Notes under the pieces: generated by a model
Seen by the model: only the letters and a program-made list of their open reading frames with translations
Told to the model about the DNA's origin: nothing
Database searches by the model: none
Part shown: one piece after another, positions 4,713 to 62,945 of the stretch
How positions within the stretch are numbered: the first letter of the stretch is position 1
Layout of the letters: every line of letters begins with the position of its first letter
Origin: Octopus vulgaris
Lineage: Eukaryota
Direction of reading: 5' to 3'
Assembly: GCA_951406725.2 (NCBI GenBank)
Contig: OX597817.1
Span: forward strand, 163,928,001-163,992,000
Length of the DNA stretch: 64,000 nucleotides
Translations under genes and position numbers: made by a program

Positions 4713-4740
<28 letters not shown>

Positions 4741-4745
<5 letters not shown>

Positions 4746-5100
4746 TATTAGAGACAAAACCACTATTTTGCAAATCAATACATAAAAAATTTTAATATAA
4801 AGTAAATAAATCACCACTACAATTGTTTCCTGTCTTCAAATGACATTCATCATAACTTTAAAATTGAATAGAAGATATGAAATCCACCTGATGAATGTCA
4901 TTTGAAGACAGGAAACAATTGTAGTGGCGATTTATTTACTTTATATTAAAATTTTTTATGTATTGATTAAGTCTTTCCTTGTTTGATTTGCAAAATAGTG
5001 GTTTTGTCTCTAATTAATATTATATATATATTTTACTATAAAATTGGATTCAATCCTAAATCTGATTTTTCCCTGTAAATTTGGATTTATTCACTAATAT

Positions 5101-5112
<12 letters not shown>
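4741..5112. mobile_element. Hammerhead-bearing Penelope-pLTR/retrozyme-like element, family 1, inverted pair in (TA)n
   Basis: 4741-4852 is the reverse complement of about 4889-5021 (small deletion in the left arm); (TA)n on both sides; near-identical copy at 23898-24208. Confidence 0.8.
4884..4927 (+). ncRNA. Type I minimal hammerhead ribozyme
   Basis: CCAC-CTGATGA-aTGTC atttgaa GACAg-GAAAC-AATT-GTA-GTGG: stem I CCAC/GTGG, intact core, stem II TGTC/GACA, palindromic stem III ACAATTGT, GUA site. Confidence 0.85.
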
Positions 5113-5131
<19 letters not shown>

Positions 5132-5139
5132 TATATATT

Positions 5140-5273
5140 AACCAAATTCACTCACAAGGCAGTCGTCAGCCCGAGGCTAGAGAAGAAGACGTCTGCCCAA
5201 AGTACTGCGCAGTGGGACTGAACCCGAAACCTCGTGGTTACAAAGCAAGCTTCTTAAACACGAAGCCTTGCCT
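5140..5273 (-). mobile_element. SINE family B 5' fragment
   Basis: Matches aaattcactcacaaggc...gcagtgggactgaaccc of the fuller copies. Confidence 0.7.
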
Positions 5274-5635
5274 ATGTTTATATATTTTATCTTAAATAAT
5301 TTTTTATTTTATCGGGAAGACTATCTCTGAAGTCATTAATGCTATTGATGTGTGACGTCAAATGAGGAGAGAGTCATAGGCACGAGAGCAATGTTAAAAT
5401 GAGAGTTGATATTTCTATTTCTTTTATGTATGTTTATAATTGTGATACTATTGTTCATTGCAATGAAAATTATGCTGGTTTAAGGGCATCATATCGTGTG
5501 CCAAGTGTCAATGACATCTCAGTTACAACAGAAATTCGGTAGACTTGATAAGGTACCACCATCTAACATAACAGATGAGAAAGTATGACACACCAAAATT
5601 GTCATAATTTTTTGTTTTAATAAAGGCAGAATTTA

Positions 5636-5852: not shown

Positions 5853-5874
5853 ATAGGTGGACTATTTGTGAGAA

Positions 5875-6258
5875 TTCTTTCTACTTATAAATACAAGGCC
5901 TAGAATTTTGGAAGAGGGGACCAGTCAATTACATCGAACCTGGTACTCTACAAGTACACATGTTATCGACCCGAAGAGATAAAAAGGAAAAGTCTACCTC
6001 AATATGAAAAGAGCGAGAGGAAATACCTATTTCTTTACTACCCACAAGGGGCTAAACACAGAGAGGACAAACAAGGACAGACAAACGGATTAAGTCGATT
6101 ATATCGACCCCAGTGCTTAACTGGTACTTAATTTATCGACCCCGAAAGGATGAAAGGTAAAGTTAACCTCGGCGTAATTTGAACACCGAACGTAACGGCA
6201 GTCGAAATACCGCTCAGCATTTTGTCCGGCGTGCTACCGGTTTTGCTAGTTCGCCGCT
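5875..6258 (-). mobile_element. Composite SINE family A (young unit joined to an older unit)
   Basis: Junction gaaatacctatttcttt at about 6020-6036. Confidence 0.8.
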
Positions 6259-8079
6259 TTGTGGGATATTTATGAAACTTAAAAGTCAATTTATGTGAAA
6301 ATTAACTAATCAGAACCTAGAATATGAAGACTTGTTGATTGTTAACTAAAATGGTCAAGTGGAACTGGTTGTAGTTAAGAAATTGTTGATATCCTTGACG
6401 TTGTTGGGCCTCGAGTCGGCTCTGGTCAAGTAAATATGGATCAAAGACAGTCAACCCATGAACATCGTGACACATAAATAGTGTACAGCAGACTATGTTA
6501 TCCAAAATGACATGTTTTAAGATGGTTTGAAGAAGATTCGTCTACTATTTTTAACCAGTCGAGCGACCATATAGAGGTTTCTTCATTAGCTTGTAATAAG
6601 GAGCTTAGATGTAGAAGTAAAAAATATATAGAGAACGTAAAAAGAAAACAGTAAAGGGGCAGAGTAGGGATACGAATGACCTGCAGAAGGATTAGATAAC
6701 AAGACGAGGCTTAAATGAATAACTGAAGATCAGTAGCTTTAGCGAAATATAAAATAGAGAAGAAGCATATATGATATAGTGTATTACAACAGGGTTTCTT
6801 AATAAGACTATTTTATTTCCCTTGTGATGGGGATGAACTTCTTTGGAGGTGAAAATAGGAGAATATTTCACTGAAAGTGGGTTTATTTTTATTCAGACAA
6901 GGAGTAAAATTATTTTCGAATTATCCATCAAAATTGATCATTAAAAGTCTATAAAACACTATATTTAAAGTCGTCGACCGAAATTGCAGAAATAATTGTC
7001 TGTTTTCTATTATGCTATTTAGTTGAGACAAATTGGATGTGTACAAAAGGGGTGAGATATCTCTTACACTCAACGACATTAAACCGAAAATTGCATATTT
7101 AGTAACAAACATCGGTTTCAAGTACCTCATTAAATAAAATAGTGAGTTAAAAATGTCGTTTTAGTATTTCACTGTTTTGTGCGGAGAGAGTGATCTGAAA
7201 ACAGAATTGGCAAAAAGTTTCCAGAGGGCGATGATTGAAAAAAAATGTTGAGGACTATTATGTTGGATGAAGAAGATAAGGAAAGCAAATGCTTGGCGGG
7301 TATGTGATAAGTAACAAGATGGTAGCTAGGAGAGAATGAAATGGTATGGGAATGGGTGTCTGAAGATAAGTAGTAATGGAGGGAATATGGAACAAAGTGT
7401 AAAAAAGTGATGGTGATAGAGAGTTATATGAAGAGGAGAAGAGAATAAGTGGGGAATGACACATAAAGAGTAAATAAAACAGGAATTTGTCGAAAATCTT
7501 GAGCAGACAGATATGGTACAGTAAACGAAAGAAAAATATAGTCTTGATAAACAGAAGTTAGAAATAGGAACATAGTAATATGAAAGCATAAGGAAACGAG
7601 AAAGAACGATAAAACTATGAAAACAAACTAATGATGTACGGTATTTGCAGAGTAATTGAGTATCATAAAAACTGCCGAATTTCTTATAGATAATGTTCGT
7701 CGTTTGCAACGGTTGATGTAGGATATATTATGGGAACCAATGTAAGAAATAGAAATTATGCTCACTAAACGATGTGTAATGATGGGTTTTGAAGCAGAAG
7801 AAAATCTTCCCGGCCTGGGTATTTAGCAACCTCAATGACTCTTGTACGATGTGAACGGAGGAAGTTTCGAGAGAAAACTATTTATAAAAAGTAGTAATTT
7901 GGATGCAGCTCAATAATAAACTAAAGTTGAATATAAGAATTGAAGAATTCTGTACATGTATGTGTGTGTGTGGGGGGGGGGTTTATCGTAGATATTACAT
8001 ACTGGAGAAAAGGAAGTATGGATAATTATAAAGATTGCTGTTTTGTTTTCATGCATTCTATAGACTAAATAAATGGTTT

Positions 8080-8504
8080 CTAATTTAGGTACAAATCCAA
8101 CAATACTGAGGGAAGGAGAATAATCGATACTATCGACCTACTTACTTGTACGTGTACTTCATATGTCAAGTACCCATTTGACTGGTACTTTATTTCACTG
8201 ACCTTGGAGAGATGAAAAACGGAGTTGACCTCAATGAGATTTGAACTCAGAATATAAAGATTCAAAAGAAATGCCTATTTCTTTACTACCCACAAGGGGC
8301 TAAACACAGAGGGGGAAAACAAGGACAGACAAACGGATTAATTCGATTATATCGACCCCAGTGTGTAACTGGTACTTAATTTATCGACCCCGAAAGGATG
8401 AAAGGCAAAGTCGACCTCGGCGGAATTTGAACTAAGAACGTAACGGCAGGCGAAATACGGCTAAAGCATTTTCCCAACGTGCTAACGATTCTGCCAGCTC
8501 ACCA
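8080..8504 (-). mobile_element. Composite SINE family A
   Basis: Junction gaaatgcctatttcttt at about 8268-8284; full young unit 8277-8504. Confidence 0.8.
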
Positions 8505-9349
8505 TTTGCAAAACAAAAACAAGTTACTCTCCTCCAAATCTGAACATTATAGAGAAAAACTTATAAAGACAGAATGTGGAATTTGGGCACACTAGAAAAT
8601 TTGTAAAGGATACAAGAAGGGATTAAACCGGGAAAGTTCTCATTTAAAGATGCTAACGGTATAACTCACTGATTAAATTCCCCTGGTTTCCTTCTCTCTC
8701 CTCTTCTTCGAACTCGATCTAAGTTTCAGCCTCGGGCGGCGGTGGACTCTGACAGGGAGCAATAGTTGCTCTGCCTCATCTACTGGACATGTCAGCAGGG
8801 TTTACTAAAGTAGAGCAGAGTTCAACCGGTACATTGTTCCAGGACTCTGAGAGCCAAAGAAGAGGCACGCGAATATCTGATGAGTCCACCTCAAAATCAA
8901 AACAAAAAATATCACAGCCCCCTTCAAATACCAAAAGGAGGCACTCTCACCGGAGCCTGAAGGGAGTCATTCCTCCTTGCGAAATGTCTTTCCCAGTCTT
9001 TGGATGGAAAGGACACACTTAAAACACAAAATCACCTCCAAGCAAACATCAAGAACACGTAAAAACACTGCGAGTATTATGCCATTCTAAAAATACAAAC
9101 ACTTCCAAGTGAGCCCTCTAGCTTTTATTGTGTTATCTAAAGGGTAATGCAATATTTGTCGATGGTGGTTGGTTGGCTGGTTGGTTGGTATATAGGTGAG
9201 TTTGTTGAAATAGGGGACGGGAGCCTCAAAACTGTAACTGGGTTGTTGTTATAAATATTCTCACATAACATTGTGTGGCCCATGATGAATCACTTAAAAC
9301 GATATACATTCCTCAGCATTTTGTTGTTTAAACACATTTCAGTACATGT

Positions 9350-9925: not shown

Positions 9926-10631
9926 GTATATGTATCTGTGCGCGTGCGTGTTATATCTGTATATCTCTGACTGCATCTATCATGTTTCATATCTCCCATT
10001 AATTTCAAACATCCTCTATATCTTTACGCTTGTTCTCTCACTCTTTCACACACACATACACACACACACACTGTATCTCTCCCCTTTTAATAGTTTCAGA
10101 GTTGCTTATCTCTTTCTCTCTTCATGAAGCTTCTTTTAAAGATGACATAAATATTGGGAAATGTACAAAAACGAGACACAATAAAAATTCACAAAGATAA
10201 GAAACAACTCCTACCTGCCTACACATATATATATATATATATATATATAATAGACAAAGTGATTTGAATGTCACTTTTGCTACCACCAGTGACAAGGTAA
10301 CCTTGCTTAAACAGTAATAATTATTTTGTTTTTCTTCGTGTAGCATTCTTCCAACTTCCTTCCACAGTGATTCTGATAACGTTTAGATTTGGCATCGCAT
10401 TTTACTAACGGAAAGTTTGCACTTCCTTCATGTAAATGTGATAAAAATACTATTTTTTAGCTTACACAGCTATTGCCTTGGAGATTAAATTTCATTGAAA
10501 ATAGAAGTAATTTTGTTTACTTTCAAGCACATCATGTATGCGCGAGTCTGTGTGGTTCAAATTCATACGGGAAACACACAACTAAAAATTTGCTGTTAAC
10601 TCCTACAATTTTGTTGCGTTAAATTGAAATC

Positions 10632-11015
10632 CTTTTTACTTATAGGAACAAGGCCTGAGATTTTTGTGTGAAGAGGACTAGTGAATTACATCAACTTCAG
10701 TGCTCAGATAGTACTTATTTTATCGACCTGAAAAGATGACAACAGAAGTCAACCTCGGCTGAATTTGAACTCAGGACATGCAGCCGGACGAAATACCTAT
10801 TTCTTTACTACCCACAAGGGGCTAAACACAGAGAGGACAAACAAGGACAGACAAACGGATTAAGTCGATTATATCGACCCCAATGCGTAACTGGTACTTA
10901 TTTAATCGACCCCGAAATGATAACAGGCAAAGTCGACCTCGGCGGAATTTGAACTCAGAACGTAGCGACAGACGAAATGCCACGAAACATTTTGTCTGGC
11001 ATGCTAGCTATTCTG
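10632..11015 (-). mobile_element. Composite SINE family A
   Basis: Junction gaaatacctatttcttt at about 10790-10806. Confidence 0.8.
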
Positions 11016-11394
11016 TTAGATTTGTCCAAATTTGGCCAAATGCGTGTTTTCAATATTTAATTTTGTTTGCAATAGCCAGTTCTTTTGGTTAAACTATCGT
11101 ATCTCCAGCTGCTTCAGATGCCAAGATATGAAAATTGTCAAAGTGTAGTACAACGGCTTAGCATTTTTCAAAGGTGTAGTAAGTCCCACATACGACAGTT
11201 TTACAAAAATATTTCTGACTGAAAATATCATACAAGCATGGAGTTACGATTTTATGCACCCAACAAAGTATTATTGTTAAGCTGAAACTGTTGCTAATGT
11301 AAAAATGGAATGGTGAAACTATTTTTCCGTTTTCTGAAAAAGCAACGTTTTGGGCTTACGACACTTTGGCATAATAGTAACGGTATATATATTT

Positions 11395-11578
11395 GATAGA
11401 TCGGTAGCCACTACACACATTTTTTTCTCTCCTCGTTTCTTTCTGTGTTCCTTTCTGTGGAAGAGCGTAGGCTCGAAACGTTAAAGACTTTTTCAATTCC
11501 CGAGCGTTATACTAATACGTCTGTTTGTTTTCTACACCACCTGTCTTCGTCCTTTGTGGGGGTTTTGTCGTGAATTCT

Positions 11579-11582
<4 letters not shown>
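11395..11582 (+). mobile_element. Hammerhead-like element, family 2a (variant core), ending in (TA)n
   Basis: Reverse-complement copy at 35184-35380. Motif at 11451-11486: CTTT-CTGTGGA-a-GAGC gtag GCTC-GAAAC-GTT-AAAG. Confidence 0.7.
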
Positions 11583-23780: not shown

Positions 23781-23897
23781 CTTTTGCTCTCTTTTATTTA
23801 TTTCAGTCATTAGACTGTGGCTATGTTGGGGCACCGATATATACATACATACATTACATAGATACATACATATATATATATATATATATACATATAT

Positions 23898-24206
23898 AAT
23901 ATTAATTCGAGACAAAAACCACTATTTTGCAAATCAAACAAGGAAAAACTTAATCAATACATAAAAAATAGAAGATCGGAAATCCACCTGACGAATGTCA
24001 TTTGAAGACATGAAACAATTGTAGTGGCGATTTATTTACTTTATATTAAAATTTTTTATGTATTGATTAAGTTTTTCCTTGTTTGATTTGCAAAATAGTG
24101 GTTTTGTCTCGAATTAATATTATATAATTTTTACTATAAAATTGGATTTAATCCTAAATCTGATTTTTTCCCTGTAATTTTGGATTTATTCCCTAATATT
24201 TATTAT

Positions 24207-24208
<2 letters not shown>
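23898..24208. mobile_element. Hammerhead-bearing element, family 1, second copy, inverted pair in (TA)n
   Basis: 23898-23968 inverted against about 24051-24122; same sequence as 4741-5112 but a different inversion breakpoint. Confidence 0.8.
23984..24027 (+). ncRNA. Type I minimal hammerhead ribozyme
   Basis: CCAC-CTGACGA-ATGTC atttgaa GACAT-GAAAC-AATT-GTA-GTGG; canonical core with a fully paired 5-bp stem II. Confidence 0.9.
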
Positions 24209-24264
<56 letters not shown>

Positions 24265-27750: not shown

Positions 27751-27857
27751 TATCTCTGTCCTATGTCAAGTTCTGGGATCGCTAAGCTACGGGATGTTGA
27801 TGGGGGACAAATACGAACACAGACACACGCACATACATACATACATACATACATATA

Positions 27858-28204
27858 CAGGGTGATTCAAAAGTCGCCATACATAGGAACAATTTATCTT
27901 TTTATAAGAACAGTTTTTTTTTATTTAACAGGCTCTATATGGTTACCATTGTTTTGAATACACATTGCAATACGTTTACCCCACTCATTGTGAACTCGTC
28001 ATAGCACAGTTGGTGATAGTGTGCAAATGAGTTGGTGATGCGTTCCTTCAAATGATTTTATGTCTTGTATCTTTCCGCGATACACCATGCTTTTCAAATG
28101 CCCCTAAAGAACCGGTCAGATCAGGGGATCTAGGGGATTTTATAAACTGTCTCTTATAAAAAAAATTAATTTTTCCTGTGTATGGAAACTTTTGAATCAC
28201 CTTG
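27858..28204 (-). mobile_element. Tc1/mariner-superfamily deleted element nested in a SINE B microsatellite
   Basis: ~60-bp TIRs cagggtgattcaaaagt... / ...acttttgaatcaccttg; minus strand reads SPRSPDLT then (frameshift) GHLKSMVYR. Confidence 0.75.
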
Positions 28205-29071
28205 TTTATAAGCATACGACGGGCTTCTTTCAGTTTCCGTCTACCAAATCCACCCACAAGGCTTCGGTCGGCTCGAAGTTATAGTAGAAGACACTTACCC
28301 GAGGTGTCACGCATTGGGACTGAACCCGGAACCACATGGATAGGAAAGCAAGCTTTTTACCACCCACCTTAACCTACTATCACCCAAACAACTTTTATGG
28401 TCTTGTACCTTCGTAATTATTAGGGCGGTGGGTTGGCATTAGTCGGTCCGGAACTATAGTAATTAACACTTGCCCAAGGTGTCGCGGAGTAGGATTGAAC
28501 CCGAAACCACAAGGTTACTAATCTCACCGACTTCTGCTTTACCTTACATCTGTCTGAAGCGAATTACTTAAAGTACCAGTCACTGGAGTCATTTTAATCG
28601 ATGAACCACCTGGTACAAAACTTGTAACCTTGCGCCTACGCCAGAAACAATTATTAAACGCAAGATTTGGCAAGGAAGAGGAAAAAGATGAGGAGAAGAG
28701 AAATGGAAGGAAAGTAAAGTCTTGGCAAACCTGAATAGATCGGCAGACACAACAGAAAGTGAAGCTATGTTGAGTGGAAGATGTTTCACTCCCAGAATAC
28801 TGACACAGAAAACAGATGTTATAGACATATGTCGCAGACAGTGTCTAACAATTATAGGGTGGCGATATTGTAGGAAATGGTATTCATACAGACAGAATGA
28901 TACAGGAAGGCTGCCTTGATATTTGTTAGCGTTAAAACAACATATTCTAAAAGGCTGTTTATAGATGTTGCACTACCAACAACCGAAAATATTTCACCGA
29001 AAATATATGTATGACATTATTTCCTTGGAAATCTAGAAAAATCAAAGATTGAGATTTTCCAATATCTAACT

Positions 29072-29957: not shown

Positions 29958-31339
29958 ATAACGAAGAAATAGTTTTCTAAATATTTTTTTCTAAATTTTT
30001 AACTTCCGTACAATGTGGCGCGCTGCCAGGATCGTTCAGGCATCGGGAGAAATTCTCTGCGGTATGTCTTCCAGTTCTTCATTTCCTGAGTTCAAAATCT
30101 CGCAGATGTCAACTTTTCTTTTCTTTCCATCTTTTTGGAGTGGATAAAAAAAAGTGCCATTCAAATACTAGAACCGGTGTAGTAGATGCACCCTCTCTCG
30201 AATTTTTGGCTTTGTTTCTGTATCAGAAACATTTAATTATCCTTGTGAATAACGAAAATTATGAATAATGAGTTTTTCAGGGCCCTCAAGCATTATTTTG
30301 ATTTTTCTAATAATTTCAGTTACGCTTTCAAAACTCAGCGATGCACCTGGATACTCAATGCGGCGTACTGTTTGAGAAGCAATGACATAATCTGTAAAGA
30401 CTTTAACAAATAGAACTAACAAAGTTGTTGAATGTGAATTAAGGTTGAACATATGAGCAGGTCGAACGGTGATATTATGGGTACAATCCATCTAACTGAC
30501 TTCCACTCAATTTCCATCAACCCAATTTTATATACACAGCCTGAGTAAACCTGAAGATATGTCAAAAACACCACCACCACCCCCAATGAGATCGAACTCG
30601 CGTCCTCGTAACTACGATTCAAACTTCTTTACCATTTGGCCAGAAAATATATATATTGACATAAAGAAAAGCGCTCGCAAATTGACTGATAAAAAATTTC
30701 CAAGCTTCTAACACATCTTAGAAGGAGAATTGTACTTATTGACATAGCCGCTATATATGCAACAATAGAAAAAATGGTCGATATTTCTGGCATAAACATA
30801 AAGCCACGTTTTAAGTTACATGTAATATAATGTAGTCTTAAAATATGAAAGGATTCTCCGCCTCTGCTATAAAGGCCTTTAAAAAGTCATTAATACTTCA
30901 GTGCAGGATGAAGAACTCTTCGACAACCGCAAAATTCATATGATCCTTCGCTTGTGGATTATTTGTGATTTATAAGTGGATAGGTGCATTAGGAGCGGTT
31001 TATAGTCTAATAAATAATGCAATGTACGGGTTGGAAGGAAAAGCTACAAGATTACAATTACGCGGGTTTACTGCATGATGAATGTATTCAACGAGGGAAT
31101 GTGCAGTATTTTGTTGGGGTTTTATATTATCGATTGCACTGAAAAATACTCTACGTGATATACTTTAACTACCAATTAGCGCTCTTTACAATATGCTTGA
31201 ATATTTGTGAGTCTTGGAGGCAGGTTTGTTATGCGTGTGAATGCATCTCTTTTAATGATCCCCAAGCCACCTATTTTTATTAGGAATTATTTCTGCTTTC
31301 CTTTCCCCCCCCCCCCACGTTCTCGTTATTTTTATTCAG

Positions 31340-32200
31340 GATATCATAAAACTGCTGAAAGACCTAAACGAAATCTACAAATGGGCTAACAAAAATAACA
31401 TGCAGTTCAATGCTATGAGATTTCAGGCACTCCACTATCGGTCCAGCACCAGGATAAAATCTGAATACACTGGACCAGATGATAATATGATCCCAGAGTC
31501 AGAGTCGGTGCGTGACCTGGGGGTTCACATGAGCAATGATGCAACATTCCATGTGAATATTACCAAGTTGGCGACACTGTGTAGGCGAGTAGCTGGATGG
31601 ATTCTGAGGACATTCAGAACCAGGAAAAGGGAAGCCCTGCTGCCCCAGTGGAAGACTTTCGTTCTCAGCCGCTTGGACTACTGCGCCCAACTATGGTCCC
31701 CAGAGAGTGTGAAACAAACTGTGGAACTCGAAGCGATCCAGCGCTAAGAGACAAAGAAAATCGATCGATGCAAAAGATGGGCTACTGAGAGAGGCTAAAG
31801 AAGTTGAGTCTCTATTCCCTGGAGAGAAGACAAGAGATAAATGCGGTGATATGTATTTGGAAGATCTTGGAGGGTTTAGCTCCCAATTTTGGAATTGACA
31901 GCTATACCAATCCTCGAACTGGACCGCACTGCATCATACCAAAGATCCCGTCTTCTCTATCTAAAATAAGGACACAGTACTGCAATTGTCTGGGTTTCAA
32001 GGTCCCACAATTGTTCAACATCCTTCCAGGCAACCTTAGAGATCTATATGGTGTTGATGTGGAAGTTTTCAAGGAATATCTGGACAGGTTTCTGTCTGAG
32101 ATACCAGATGAACCCACATCACGACAGGAAACGCAAAGAGCGGCTCTGTCCAACTCGCTACTTCACCAACTACAGATGGTGCACCAGCGTGACCTCAGCC
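31340..32200 (+). mobile_element. CR1/L2-group LINE 3' fragment (RT C-terminal region), pseudogenised
   Basis: ORFs 31400-31747 (RDLGV...WILRTF...SRLDYCAQLWSP...LEAIQR) and 31804-32232 (LYSLERR...QLFNILP...FKEYLDRFLSEIPDEP). Confidence 0.9.
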
Positions 32201-32744
32201 CTGGGCTGAAACCAGTAAAATATAAAAGATAAAAGATATAAAAGGTTTACTTTTGCGCATTTACCTCTGTCTAAGTATTGATTTTACTGGTCTATATAAC
32301 TTCCTAATATTTCTCATAAGACGGCCAGCTGGCAGAATCGCAAGCACGTCGGACAAAATGCTTTTAATTCTACTCTTTATCTCCAGAGTTCAAATGCTGC
32401 TGGGGTCAACATTCACTTTCATAACCTTTGGGGTCGAAAAAATAAAGTAATGGGTAAGTGTTGGGGGGGGTCAGTGTAATCGACAGACCTTCTCCCATTG
32501 AGATTGTTTACCTTGAACCCTGAAATGGGCCAGCATCCCGTTCATAAAAATGTTGTGATCTCGGTCACTTATAGGCCATGGAAACCGAGTAATTAGAGTC
32601 CTAGAGCTCGAAAAAAACTGTTTCTTTTAATCGGTCTAATTCATTAATTCCAGTGTATTTTGCAAGTTTGTGTTTAGTCCAATTATTTTGTCCCTGATTC
32701 TTTATTTAGCCTAATATCATTGCTCTTAATTAATTTTGGTCTCT

Positions 32745-35183: not shown

Positions 35184-35380
35184 GGGGAGAATTCACGAAA
35201 AAAACAAAAGACGAAGACAAGTGGTGCAGAAAACAAACAGATGTATTAGTATAACGCTCGGGAATTTAAAAAGTCTTTAACGTTTCGAGCCTACGCTCTT
35301 CCACAGAAAGGAACACAAAAAGAAACAAGGAGAGAAAGAAGCAGAGAGAAAAAAATGTGTGTAGTGGCTACTGATCTATC
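35184..35380 (-). mobile_element. Hammerhead-like element, family 2a, second copy
   Basis: Reverse complement of 11395-11582; motif at 35275-35310 identical to 11451-11486; TA-rich arrays on both sides. Confidence 0.7.
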
Positions 35381-35946
35381 ATGGCGAATGTATATATATG
35401 TATATGTATGTATGTGTGTATATGGGTGTGTGTGTGTATAGATATATATATATATATATAGTTAATCCGAGGAAGTTAAGTCCTCATTAGGGATTATATA
35501 ATCCAACGTATTCCACTGGTTCAATCCATATCATATAATGGTAAAGTTATTGGTATATGTTTAGGATTACTGAATTGTTTAATATTGATGGGGGAAAAAG
35601 AAGAAAATTGAGAATAAATGGATGTAATTTCAAATTTATCCGCATATTGTAGAAAGATGACTTTTTTTTTTAAAAAAAAAAAAAAAGCATTACAAATAAA
35701 AAAAAATGGATTGGCAGTTGAAAATTCAAAAGCTTTCAACTTCCAAAGCATTTATTTATTTATTTATTTGCAATGTTTTTTTTTAAAAAAAAAAAACAGA
35801 TCACGGTCTTAAAGCGACGAAAATATTTTGACAAATTAAATTTAAATGTTGAAGTGCATCTAACGGATTTTATGTGTTTTGTAAATGGCTTATAAACACC
35901 TTCCACGCTGCAATTGTTATCTTTCTACAACATGCAAATAAATCAG

Positions 35947-37287: not shown

Positions 37288-37663
37288 CAGATGCAAATAC
37301 GTGTGTGTGTAGGCATATGTGTGTGTTTCATTGTCTGTGTGTCCTTGTTTATGAGCTATGTTAAAGTTTCTAATTACACTGTTTTTTACTTCAATATTTT
37401 CTCATAGGTTTTTACGAGTATAAACATTATTTACTTCCTCCAGTTAATTGATTGATAAATTTGTCAAAAAAAACGATATATCAACAGAATTATAAATTCT
37501 AGTTGCTGATCATATCTCGTGAAATCAATAAAATAACGTATTTTTTTCTCCATTAGATCATAACACGATCCGTTAACATGACAGAAACGCAGTGGTAGAT
37601 TGTAGAATTTATTTTGCTTTATACAAAGTTCGAATCCCACTAGTTCTTATATATATATATATA

Positions 37664-38261
37664 TTACAAGATAAGGGCAAAAGAAAAATTCTAATGCCAA
37701 ATATGCCGAAACAACAAATTGTCGATAACCATCTCGAAATCTCTAAAAAATTCGTTATTACCGTATTGGTCCAATTTCGGGGTTAATTCATAAGAAAATT
37801 TTCCCCTCTTCAGCGGCAAATACGCGAGATATAAGTGAAATACTTACTCATACCCATGGAAAAAGCAAGCACCAAGTCCTGACCAGACCTAAGTACCCCA
37901 AATATATCCAAAATAGAAAAATCTTCGGCACACCTCGGGACACGTGATTCGAACAAGAAACTTTAATAGAGTGAGCGAATCCGGAAGTGAAACACTATTC
38001 AATTTATAACTAATGTAGGATAAAACTTTTTTCGGGAAATTGGACCAATACGGTAATAACGAATTTTTTAGAGATTTCTATTGGTTTGTTTCGAGACGCA
38101 TAAATTATAATGGTTATCGACATATTTCGGCATATTTGGCATTAGAATTTTTCTTTTGCCCTTATCTTGTAAATTATTTATAAATTTAACCTTTAAAGGT
38201 ATTTTTTGATATGCTGGCCATTGATAAAATTTTTTTCCCGAAAAATTTTATCCTACATTAG
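37664..38261. mobile_element. Hammerhead-bearing element, family 4, divergent inverted pair with circular permutation
   Basis: 37664-37778 inverted against 38036-38172; 38010-38038 inverted against 38235-38261; (TA)n on the left, (TTA)n on the right. Confidence 0.8.
37758..37819 (-). ncRNA. Type I hammerhead ribozyme
   Basis: Minus strand: TTGCCG-CTGAAGA-GGGG-(20 nt)-CCCC-GAAAT-TGG A CCA-ATA-CGGTAA; 6-bp stem I, 4 G-C pairs in stem II, quasi-palindromic stem III, AUA site. Confidence 0.92.
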
Positions 38262-38262
38262 C

Positions 38263-39159: not shown

Positions 39160-39782
39160 ATATTTGCCAAAATGATTTTCTGGCATTACCGTTTCTTTGT
39201 TGACATTAACGATTTCATTTCATACCTGATCACATGGAAAATAATTCTATGTGTTCTTTTTTCATATTTCATCTGTATTAGCATAGTTTGGTGGGTTTTA
39301 AATTAAATGTCAATAACAATACAAACTTTTACATATATTTTTTGCAATATTTTAACATACATTACCGAAAAAATATATAAACAAACAATAAAAGACACTG
39401 CTTTATATTTTGTAAAACACACAAAACCTTTAAATATATAGAAAATACAAAGACCACGAATGACTCAAATTACATGTACTGTAGTATTTATCTACCAGGT
39501 GTAGTGAAGCATGTGGTTTTGTGTGTTTTACAAAATATAAAGCAGTGTCTTTTATTGTTTGTTTATATATTTTTTCGGTAATGTATGTTAAAATATTGCA
39601 AAAAATATATGTAAAAGTTTGTATTGTTATTGACATTTAATTTAAAACCATCAAACTATGCTAATACAGATGAAATATGAAAAAAGAACACGTAGAATTA
39701 TTTTCCATGTGATCAGGCATGAAATGAAATCGTTAATGTCAACAAAGAAACGGTAATGCCAGAAAATCATTTCGGCAAATAT
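39160..39782. repeat. Long near-perfect inverted repeat (~268-bp arms, 86-bp spacer)
   Basis: 39160-39428 is the reverse complement of 39515-39782 with only a few differences. Confidence 0.92.
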
Positions 39783-44086: not shown

Positions 44087-44089
<3 letters not shown>

Positions 44090-44318
44090 ATAAAACGGTA
44101 AGATAACAAAAGAAAGAAAGAGACCTCAATATTATGTAAATAGAGGAAATTTATCTATACAATATGTTACATTACTCGGTAGTCAAGATAAAACTCTGAG
44201 TTTCAGATGCCGAAGTGGAAATCCACAACAAACCGAAGAGATGGTGTTGTGGATTTCCACTTCGGCATCTGAAACTCAGAGTTTTATCTTGACTACCGAG
44301 TAATGTAACATATTGTAT

Positions 44319-52213: not shown

Positions 52214-52390
52214 ATCGTTGGTGATTTTCTTCCTCCGTCTTCTATTGGACTTTCCTCTGTTTCCGAACAAGAGCATCTGCTCGAAACATTAACCCATCTC
52301 TCTTTCCTTCTTTGAGCGTCTGCTAATACATTACATGTACCAAGTCCTCGCGTTGTTGTGTTGCTTGTGTTTGTTCTTTTGGGGATTTAT
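52214..52390 (+). mobile_element. Degenerate copy of hammerhead element family 2b
   Basis: Colinear with 62753-62945; core decayed to CCGAACA-a-GAGC atct GCTC-GAAAC-ATT; ends in TA repeats. Confidence 0.65.
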
Positions 52391-52645: not shown

Positions 52646-53235
52646 AGGCAGAAGCAGACACACGGAAATATCACACACAAATATGTACGCATTCGAATGT
52701 ATCAGATTTTATATGAACATGTATAAAGAACAGTCTTTTTTAATTACGAATGACATTTGCGTTTCCACACCACACCACTCCTGTCTCTTTCTCTCCCTCA
52801 CAAAGTATTAGATTATCGCAGATGTCTCGGAAATATCACACCAGTCGGTTGAAACGTATGCTGCAAAATATAAAACCAGTTGTAGTAGTGAAATTTCCAG
52901 GATATAATACTCTCACTTATCAAATAGAATGTCAAAATGTAAAGTGTAGACATCTTATGAACAGTGACGCGTTATTTCGATATTCCTTTATCTATTTATT
53001 TGGAACATTCCAAATTTATAGCTTAAGTGGGGGACAGGGGGATCATTGTTTCCGTGTATATATTTGTGTGTGTTTATATGTGTCTGTTTCTGTGTGAGCA
53101 TGTGCACGTGTATTTAATATATACATATACATACACATTCACACATACGTACATGCATGTATACATACATACATTTATACACACACACATAATATATACA
53201 ATACGTACATATATTCCTATATATATATATATATA

Positions 53236-53302
53236 TATAGTTTATATCATAGCTTTGTCAGCTTCGAGATCCACCACTCCAAGATAGAGTTACATATATA
53301 TG

Positions 53303-53372
<70 letters not shown>

Positions 53373-53443
53373 ATTACATATATATGTAACTCTATCTTGG
53401 AGTGGTGGATCTCGAAGCTGACAAAGCTATGGTATAAACTATA
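53236..53443. repeat. Inverted repeat (~73-bp arms) around a central (TA)n
   Basis: 53236-53308 is the inverse of 53371-53443 with one mismatch seen. Confidence 0.9.
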
Positions 53444-57528: not shown

Positions 57529-58139
57529 CATACATACATACATACATACATACATACATACATACATACATACTTACATATGTATGAGGCTTAGGTGTTG
57601 CGATACTAATGACCAAGCATATGTCTTAGAACAAAGCGAAATGTGTTGATAATAAGAGAAATGACAAAGACATAAACAGTTATCATATAAACTCCATTAT
57701 CTTACATCTGCATTTGTCCCAAAAAATTTCACTTCATATTTGAGACTCTGATGAAACTGTAAGGTGTTACTCAGGTACTCAACTATGAGTCCACTACCTC
57801 TTATAGTAGAAACAGTTATAAGCGAATGAAGTTCATAAAACAACCTGTAGTGGATCTTGCATGCATGAAGTGGATTCGATCCACCATAGCCAAATTTAAA
57901 TAAACTATGCAACAGAACTTTTCTCACGATGGATCAATGTTTTTTCTCTGACAGCAGTTTTACATTTTCCAGATGCCTTTAGCTAGGCCGAAATAATGTC
58001 TTCACCACTTGACCCTTTCTAACCTCTTCTACTTCACCAAAAGCTAGAATAGATAACAAGACCACCAACTAAATCTATTGTTCTCAATGATATATATATC
58101 CTTCTGGATCTTAATATAAGCAAGCACACTCCAATCGTA

Positions 58140-58357
58140 CTACGTACGTTTCATGGCAACAATTACATTCGAATTACAATTAAATTTAAATATATATATA
58201 TGTGTGTGTGTGTGTGTGTATGTGTGTGTGTGTGTGTGTGTATGTGTGTGTGTGTGTGTGTGTGTGGCTACAATTAAATTGGAATTACAATTAAATTTAG
58301 ATATATATATATATATATATATATATATTTCACACACCAACTTTCTCACCTATGTAT

Positions 58358-58429
<72 letters not shown>

Positions 58430-58759
58430 AATTTAATTGTAATTCGAATTTAATTGTAGCCATGAAACGTACGTAGTTTTTTTCTTATATATTGTTTATT
58501 TATTTTCATACTTTTTGAGATCTAGTTATATGTTTTATAAAAATATACTTTATTTTTTATTTATGTTTTGATTTATGTCTATCATTGTTTGAGTTGCATA
58601 ATAGTGGTTTTATCTCTAATTTATATTTATATATATTAATTATCTTTTTTAATAATTTTGATATATATTTAAATATTATAAATTAATTAATCTTATGTAT
58701 TGGCTTAAGTTTTTCATTGTATGATTTGCCTAATAGTGGTTTTATCTCTAATTTAATAT

Positions 58760-58762
<3 letters not shown>
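58140..58762. mobile_element. Inverted-pair element with a hammerhead 3' half; tail related to family 1
   Basis: 58140-58192 is the inverse of 58424-58476, which ends GCCAT-GAAAC-GTAC-GTA. aatagtggttttatctctaatt occurs twice downstream, matching the family 1 tail. Confidence 0.55.
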
Positions 58763-58833
<71 letters not shown>

Positions 58834-61099: not shown

Positions 61100-61840
61100 C
61101 TTTCGGACGTAGTTAACACAGACGAATTCACATTTGGAACTTGAGAAAAGTCTTGCATATTTTTATTGTTCCACTCACAGATTGCATTTGTAATGTACGA
61201 ATTAGCCGGTAAATTTCTCTTTCTGAAAAGAGATGTTTATATCTGCAGGGTAGCTGACCTCTATGATGGTACATATCTTTGCCCCTCTGCCAAACAACAA
61301 TATCCGGTCTGTTATGTTTACATTTGACTTTTCATGCGAATATTCCACCAGTATTCTTTTGAGTTGGTGTTTATGAATGTATTCCATAAGAACGGGAGTT
61401 TCTAAGTTTATTTCAGGACAGTCTTTTTTGCGGATGGCATTGTAAATTGTTTTAGCAACAACATCGTGCCGCATAGGGAGGTAGTACTGTGATGACATTT
61501 TAGGACAGCTGCTAATCACATGCATAATGTCTTCCACAGAAACATGACATAACCTACACATGCGGTTGCACCTTAGACTTACAAGAGCGTCAGTCTCTCT
61601 TGTCCACCAGGTACTCTGTGACAATCTCCTGTTCCTGGATTGCAAACGCATAGCCTTCAAAGAGTGATGTGATGCAGTGGACTTGTGTCCAAGAGAGGCT
61701 GCGCTTCGTGTCAATTCTACTGTCTTCTTAAAGATTCCGGGCATGGTCTTTTTGTATGCTGAGTGCTTTCCATCCAGGTCATCGCTGAGATAAGAGAGCC
61801 CAGCTATTTGGGGGCTGTATACCTCCCTCAGAGCCATTTA
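61100..61840 (-). mobile_element. R4/Dong-clade LINE 3' fragment (CCHC knuckle and restriction-like endonuclease), decayed
   Basis: ORF 61202-61837 contains CRLCHVSVEDIMHVISSC...RHDVVAK and CTIIEVS.P.D.NI. Confidence 0.85.
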
Positions 61841-62752: not shown

Positions 62753-62945
62753 ATTGTTGGCGATTTTCTTTCTCCGTCTTCCCTTCCTTGGACCTTTCCT
62801 GTTTCTATGTTTCTGACGAAGAGCTCCGCTCGAAACGTTAAATCCTCCTTCGTCCTTTCCTTTCCTGAGCGTCCAATAACACCATACTTGTTCCACGTCC
62901 TCGCGTTGTTGTGTTTTCTCTTTGTGTTTTCATGTTTGGATTAAC
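62753..62945 (+). mobile_element. Hammerhead-bearing element, family 2b, ending in (TA)n
   Basis: Homologous to 52214-52390; microsatellites on both sides. Confidence 0.7.
62809..62843 (+). ncRNA. Ultra-minimal type I hammerhead ribozyme
   Basis: GTTT-CTGACGA-a-GAGC tcc GCTC-GAAAC-GTT-AAAT; loopless palindromic stem III (AACGTT). Confidence 0.75.

Follow-up and report, generated by a model that had tools for sequence, protein, structure and literature searches.

How does a short insertion come to carry a mirror copy of part of itself? The question is raised by two loci in a 64,000-nt stretch of the Octopus vulgaris genome (hereafter the window), A (4741-5110) and B (23898-24207), each of which consists of the ribozyme-bearing 3' end of an element with a shorter copy of it inverted head to head, and both of which are bordered by (TA)n on both sides. 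A preliminary description of this DNA had proposed that A and B are independent insertions, that the inversion is created afresh at each integration from one RNA, and that both target strands prime reverse transcription.

Comparison of the flanks of A with those of B revealed no similarity. Since the flanks lack homology, the two loci are separate insertions, as had been proposed, and their breakpoints differ as well; an origin of the pair by segmental duplication is ruled out on the same ground. As previously described, the right arms are shared and their ends coincide: they are 95.1% identical (233/245, E 3e-107), with 9 substitutions in the 247 columns of a pairwise alignment, and they differ at their 5' ends also. 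The left arms, put at about 112 and 71 bp in the preliminary description, indeed amount to 112 aligned bases in A and 71-72 nt in B. The 112 bases of A cover 133 nt of the right arm, the left arm having lost the 20 nt that separate two TTGATT repeats, and contain the hammerhead minus C3 and minus the 5' strand of helix I. At the junction the arms overlap by 3 nt in B (23967-23969), by at most 2 nt in A and by 4 nt at a further locus at 37.6 kb, and the sequence left unmirrored between the mirror points of A and B measures 35 and 81 nt. Altogether, the arms of A and B show four different 5' breakpoints and two 3' end points (Table 1).

Table 1. Coordinates of the features of loci A and B and of related elements in the window.
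Feature	Position	Strand	Remarks
A left (TA)n target tract	4713..4739	.	pure TA; duplication unreadable there
A short inverted arm, tail-less	4741..4853	-	mirrors 4889-5021; 112 aligned bases
A long-arm body	4854..5021	+	4854-4866 belongs to the element but is missing in B
A type I hammerhead motif	4884..4927	+	helix III palindrome at 4915-4922; cut predicted after 4923
A one-sided tail, ~89 nt	5022..5110	+	opens with internal TA tract; from arm alignment
A right (TA)n tract	5114..5138	.	from sequence
B left copy of C-marked direct repeat	23883..23898	+	candidate target-site duplication (TSD), at most 16 nt
B short inverted arm, tail-less	23898..23969	-	mirrors 24051-24121 (71-72 nt); sole difference a 1-nt T-run indel
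B long-arm body	23967..24121	+	from arm alignment
B type I hammerhead motif	23984..24027	+	helix II of 5 bp; distal helix I intact; cut predicted after 24023
B one-sided tail, ~86 nt, with hairpin	24122..24207	+	hairpin z -2.4 in B vs -0.06 in A
B right copy of C-marked direct repeat	24207..24222	+	continues into (TA)n to 24260
Third family	37648-38262 (inverted-arm locus 37665-38262)	long arm minus	full hammerhead, core 37807-37813
Second family, same design	44088-44315		tail on the left (~65 nt), then arm, spacer of 14 nt and inverted arm; arms identical over 80 nt
Diverged family-1 relative (79-83%)	58543..58770	+	a pair of 3' pieces in head-to-tail order, both ending at the internal site

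The outer ends of the two arms are not equivalent: the left arms reach only as far as an internal TA-like tract (5021-5031) and the right arms continue for 86-89 nt beyond it. The earlier statement that both 3' ends face outward into (TA)n stands as far as the (TA)n on both sides goes, but the two outer ends correspond to separate points of the element. Such asymmetry bears directly on the reading of A and B as a DNA MITE or foldback element with terminal inverted repeats. Inverted repeats, TA flanks and a high copy number are all features that this reading would explain; the right-side repeat, however, is not terminal, arm lengths differ (112 vs 71), the inner ends differ too, and no fixed terminal inverted repeat boundaries were found. 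The hammerhead motif, a strong 3' excess and the head-to-tail relatives at 58543-58770, which lack an inversion, count further against it. The MITE reading is thus largely refuted by the asymmetric ends, and we consider it barely credible. Within the tail of A, 5032-5097 comprises two similar 25-nt stretches and a hairpin, and the end of the tail resembles the internal end point; this resemblance hints at stepwise extension of the tail.

Equally implausible, in our judgement, is an artefact of assembly or of long-read fold-back. The arms of B differ by homopolymer length only, mirror pairs centred on (TA)n do occur in the window, and the A and B junctions are not among the joints listed in other sequencing runs, all of which would suit an artefact. 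A fold-back read, however, would mirror the tail and the right flank also, yet each left arm has a unique flank. The arms of A moreover differ by a CpG transition (at 4928) and by the repeat-bounded deletion of 20 nt, both of which, together with a variant outer end, are private to the left arm.

Both loci carry a type I hammerhead motif with predicted cut sites. That of A comprises helix I (4884-4887/4924-4927), the core (4888-4894), a helix II with a 7-nt loop and a GUA triplet. The copies had been said to differ only at core position 7 and one stem II base, which holds for the minimal hammerhead (4892, core position 7; 4911, the base closing stem II) but not beyond it, as two further differences, 4877-4878, lie in distal helix I, which is intact in B only. 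A hammerhead descriptor, composed after the motif had been seen, found four sites in the 64-kb window (A, B, 37813 on the minus strand and 62813) and no site in any of 200 block-wise dinucleotide shuffles; the motif is therefore not due to chance. Rfam returned no match at the gathering score, and a loose E-value gave only generic hairpin or miRNA scores far below gathering. Free folding yielded no hammerhead fold and a z-score within chance, a failure that is expected because helix III is unstable. Self-pairing of the helix III palindrome amounts to -6.4 kcal/mol; a self-paired dimer form has been described for the hammerheads of Penelope-like elements (PLEs) in PMC4209133, which also mentions hammerhead motifs that occur in pairs, one on each strand, at distances of 100-700 bp. 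Among the variants listed for the family, the large ones within the motif either lie in loop 2 (4900, and insertions at 4905-4906) or affect core position 7, which is free.

We regard it as very probable that A and B are of PLE type. The marks found are a hammerhead with a short palindromic helix III, 5' truncation with fixed 3' ends, an inverted copy and a (TA)n target. Membership is read from these non-coding marks, since no RT or GIY-YIG gene is linked to the loci; an ORF and motif search of the 64-kb window found no RT or GIY-YIG gene and no PLE gene, and the motif search gave an isolated 4-residue motif at 52942. Truncated copies such as A and B would not be expected to contain such a gene. 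The mark of 5' truncation has to be read with the limit that the 3' depth excess comes in part from a subfamily with another upstream sequence. The inverted 5'-truncated copy stands at the 5' end in 2/2 full loci and is missing from the diverged third locus; conversely, the direct (partial tandem) pLTR layout is absent at A and B and present in 58543-58770, where the second piece runs into (TA)n without hammerhead or inversion.

The wider family was followed in public sequencing runs. Of 24 runs listed, none is recorded as RNA; four of them, with three organism labels from three studies, contributed 7116, 2193, 1187 and 151 contigs (10,647 in all), which are short (60-120 nt). Pattern scans of metagenome contigs, viral contigs and prokaryote genomes gave no matches. 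As contigs of 4/4 runs cover the stretch 4854-4866 of A, it is element sequence and not a spacer: 4854-4862 is covered in the four runs, 98, 63, 43 and 6 contigs extend past the ends of the stretch, and two contigs of one run extend about 69 letters further upstream. Among the 24 of 213 loose ends listed, ends into TA or ATT repeats were found behind 5031 in at least 47, 37, 19 and 9 contigs of the four runs, and behind 5101 in at least 12 and 1 contigs. Both 3' end points (5031 and 5101) thus occur family-wide. From the first 5' bin to the 3' body the summed depth, which is not copy number, rises 206- to 1343-fold in 4/4 runs, a hint in favour of 5'-truncated insertions; part of the step at 4953 is due to the subfamily with another upstream sequence (42, 8 and 11 contigs). 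Among the joints listed in the four runs, there was neither a strand change nor a 'go back' (tandem) joint, both listed joints being skips, in contigs of only 60-120 nt. The run contigs therefore lend no support to the inversion being common in the family, nor do they mean that it is absent.

If the mirror half is made when the element lands, the two arms of a locus should resemble each other more than they resemble the other locus, and the preliminary description had indeed pointed to locus-specific bases in both arms. At 5/5 informative sites (4892, 4911 and 5011 in A; 4973 and 5011 in B) the base in the short arm is that of its own locus, leaving out 4986 for the short arm of A, where the 20-nt deletion makes it ambiguous, and column 5022 at the TA boundary. 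Substitutions within and between loci point in the same direction, at 1/112 vs 4/112 for A and 0/71 vs 2/71 for B, but are not significant alone. Some of these sites are, however, family variants. The 5011G of gtctcgaat accounts for 10-21% of the summed depth in 4/4 runs (74 contigs in one run) and 4892C for 4-27% in 4/4 runs, and the three bases that match between the arms of A (4892, 4911, 5011) are majority alleles; the one minor allele common to both is 4930A. The arms of B, by contrast, share two minor alleles, 5011G and 4973T, of which 4973T is not among the variants listed at the 1% level in the four runs. Because the matching bases of A are majority alleles, the allele evidence for arms of one origin is strong for B only. 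The terminal variant of the A short arm is missing from the A long arm, yet turns up again behind 5014 in two of the runs, in 36 and 20 contigs, which does not fit a single identical template for both arms.

A second line of evidence comes from the target site of B, where a direct repeat marked by a C encloses both arms and is a candidate target-site duplication. The last 6 nt of its left copy also fit the internal TA tract of the element, and since the ends of the element are TA-like, the length of the duplication lies anywhere between about 2 and 16 nt. Among 34 other TA tracts, four have such a C; in one of them it lies within 9 nt of the right end of the tract, whereas no tract has one that close to its left end.

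Taken together, the independent sites, four 5' breakpoints, 5/5 alleles, lack of fixed terminal inverted repeats and candidate duplication at B make it likely that the inversion was created at insertion. The claim that it arises afresh each time is accordingly favoured at A and B by breakpoints, alleles and the candidate duplication, but the four runs do not confirm it family-wide. One alternative places the inversion outside the insertion step, either in palindromic source copies or through two insertions into one TA tract followed by deletion of the centre and arm-to-arm conversion. Long hairpins are indeed present and decaying in the window (the 20-nt deletion of A, 39160-39782, the TA-centred mirror pairs), and with 5011G being a subfamily variant, some of the arm sharing requires no single event. 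The CpG transition and indels between the arms of A have nevertheless not been converted, a single marked direct repeat brackets B, whose arms share two minor alleles, and the arms meet directly, overlapping by 3 nt with no intervening TA. We therefore rate an origin outside the insertion step as improbable.

Creation of the inversion at insertion may be accounted for by priming from both target strands, which we regard as the best mechanism, ahead of fold-back, but to which we give only about an even chance. A GIY-YIG endonuclease would nick both strands of (TA)n a few to about 16 bases apart, the upper figure being taken from the candidate duplication of B. Priming by the bottom-strand end, at the distal limit of the tail, would yield the cDNA of the long arm, and the top-strand end would pair over about 6 nt with the internal TA tract of the RNA and prime, at the near end of the tail, a second cDNA that becomes the tail-less arm; at B, the possible pairing of the target end with this tract is 6 nt. 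As both arms copy the same bases, the second cDNA would need a further RNA molecule, an RNA in tandem or circular form, or a renewed reading following displacement. The preliminary claim of one RNA meets a difficulty in that the same 71-133 nt are copied twice, so that a single molecule would require two readings or a tandem structure. The two unfinished cDNAs would then be joined head to head via the microhomology of 0-4 nt observed at the junctions, and fill-in and later small deletions would complete the locus.

Against two-strand priming, there are only two loci, and the short arm is nested in the long arm at 2/2 of them, just as required by single priming followed by cDNA fold-back. According to the latter, a first cDNA stalled close to the hammerhead would pair at its 3' end with itself over 2-3 bases, copy back in the direction of the tail, stop at the internal TA tract and anneal there to the other (TA)n overhang. 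Fold-back predicts the same junction microhomology at A and B, and the junctions hence do not establish the earlier claim that both target strands primed; it also accommodates the arms of B, which are identical save for one T-run indel and share 4973T. Three observations speak against it. The short arm of A ends in the recurrent family variant, unlike the end of its own long arm; the internal site can serve as an end itself, since many contigs end there into (TA)n and 58543-58770 does so without an inversion; and at 37665-38262 each arm holds sequence missing from the other, an arrangement of arms that are not nested and that fold-back of a single cDNA cannot give. We hence consider fold-back unlikely for A and B, albeit the strongest of the alternatives. 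Much less probable still is the model of PMC3846280, in which self-priming takes place at a palindrome in the junction, with an antisense strand as template. It yields head-to-head repeats and was proposed for PLEs, but it was deduced from junction palindromes, and here a search for such palindromes gave best arms of 3 bp (A), 2 bp (B) and 1 bp (the 44-kb locus). The 35 and 81 nt between the mirror points, being unmirrored, also argue against it.

The reading that we put forward as a whole, and hold slightly more probable than its negation, is that A and B are 5'-truncated insertions of the hammerhead-bearing 3' end of a PLE (pseudo-LTR plus tail), or of a non-coding derivative mobilised by such an element, in which the inverted arm was made in the same event. 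More tentatively, and with somewhat less than even confidence, we suggest that double target-primed reverse transcription is built into these elements, so that inverted arm, one-sided tail and target-site duplication form one signature, and the RNA carries two TA-like priming points at the ends of its tail. Each nicked (TA)n strand would pair with one priming point and direct its own cDNA from separate or tandem RNA; microhomology would join the cDNAs, and ordinary second-strand priming would be unneeded. We did not find this mechanism stated for PLEs in the open-licence literature, although older Penelope papers may state it.

Three unrelated hammerhead families in the window follow the same design. 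The second, at 44088-44315, has (TA)n on both sides and the 3' half of a hammerhead-like motif in both arms. In the third, at 37665-38262, the tail-less arm contains the entire hammerhead together with about 200 nt upstream and has at its head a copy of the final 30 nt of the tail, and the short inverted arm contains the full tail, so that neither arm is contained in the other. The head of its long arm looks as if it had been read through a tandem or circular RNA; directly after the unit junction there is an 11-nt match to 4862-4872 of family 1, and a stretch near 37950 has what we take to be a resemblance to a tRNA B-box. Because the flanks differ, this locus could also be two insertions.

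A number of other repeats lie in the window. Single hammerhead-bearing pieces of another family, both ending in (TA)n, are found at 62753-62925 and 52214-52374; the former includes the descriptor site at 62813 and the latter has decayed. A further repeat is present in two copies (86%) at 11394-11581 and 35185-35381, with a (TA)n end and a hammerhead-like 3' half. Mirror pairs of 51-54 nt (96-98%) centred on (TA)n, with a geometry opposite to that of A and B, occur at 53240-53439 and 58139-58477 and represent either local fold-back duplication or an assembly artefact. The 623-nt hairpin at 39160-39782, with arms of about 300 nt and no (TA)n borders, is foldback- or MITE-like. An element of about 350 nt at 27857-28205, with 60-nt inverted ends (85%), starts at a TA beside a (TACA)n tract and is presumably Tc1/mariner MITE-like. 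A SINE-like short repeat is very common (up to 26 overlapping matches per site), at 5141-5284, directly to the right of A, 5871-6276, 8181-8519, 10627-11019 and about 20 more places. Broken reading frames at 31259-32232 (+) and 61202-61837 (-) resemble C-terminal parts of non-LTR retrotransposon proteins.

The layout of A and B is not new; it has already been published for PLEs, of which these copies are a further case, and their value lies in helping to frame how the mirror half arises on landing. What is added to the preliminary description is the C-marked direct repeat at B, the two distinct outer end points and the link to the published layout. The family is very abundant, its insertions are short, its alleles are marked and it has two natural 3' end points, which makes it a good test set; a few hundred assembled copies could separate two-strand priming from fold-back by counting. 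For annotation, (TA)n hairpins of this kind mimic MITEs or microRNA precursors, yet are retroelement stumps.

How, then, do A and B compare with known systems? In L1 twin priming both target strands prime, and an inverted, truncated product comes to lie within the target-site duplication, the two arms being drawn from separate portions of one RNA. A and B are alike in having such an inverted, truncated product, which at B lies inside a candidate duplication. The arms of L1 insertions are non-overlapping, however, and have a poly(A) end, whereas those of A and B duplicate 133 and 71 nt and are without poly(A); an L1-type twin-primed insertion is ruled out, since both arms copy the same bases and poly(A) is lacking.

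Non-LTR retrozymes of animal genomes, proposed to be PLE derivatives (PMC7229834; bioRxiv 10.64898/2026.07.22.740005), resemble A and B in being short and non-coding and in carrying a type I hammerhead. They are defined as head-to-tail tandem units, each with a hammerhead, together with circular RNA, whereas A and B consist of one forward unit and an inverted arm. The single forward hammerhead per locus rules against a retrozyme of tandem units, and no tandem joint was found among those listed.

For the PLEs themselves, the usual traits according to PMC8557442 include an inverted 5'-truncated copy beside the 5' end, a (TA)n bias and a tail restricted to one end; that paper names the formation of the inverted repeats and the choice of microsatellites an open question. 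PMC3846280 reports a head-to-head inverted pLTR layout, in which a tail is optional, for EN+ PLEs, PMC8969392 repeats the layout as curation advice, and the accessible text of PMC6962438 notes only hammerheads and Penelope elements in squid. The PAc element (Poseidon, Anolis; PMC11167929) is comparable in its AT-rich target and in having two RT start points that bound the tail. Purified PAc, a predicted dimer, nicks and extends both strands, and its two start sites are internal; this biochemistry favours two-strand priming. These sites lie inside the ORF and are without homology to the cut DNA, however, whereas in A and B both ends resemble the target; the sections of PMC11167929 that were examined give no explanation of inverted copies.

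EN+ PLEs (PMC3846280, PMC8557442) share with A and B the inverted 5'-truncated copy at the 5' end, a one-sided tail, variable duplications or microhomology junctions, a hammerhead in the terminal repeat and AT-rich targets. They differ in a tail of 30-40 nt as against 86-89 nt, and A and B are without an ORF and without a junction palindrome.

The PLEs of the Hydra clade (PMC8557442), among them Penelope-13_HM, Penelope-2_NV and Hydra-1_Obim, resemble A and B in target and ribozyme. Six family motifs were searched for in the supplement of that paper, where line breaks can hide motifs; three were absent and three occurred in unrelated contexts, which gives no sequence link to the clade. The hammerhead of Hydra-1_Obim differs from that of A and B, and the clade is defined by its protein (RWK, DKT, no CCHH), so that A and B agree with it in target and hammerhead shape only. 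In these two respects the agreement covers a (TA)n target and a compact hammerhead whose helix II is flanked on either side by an additional base and whose helix III is palindromic, and Penelope-13_HM is also listed with a 5'-truncated inverted copy and the hammerhead on both strands.
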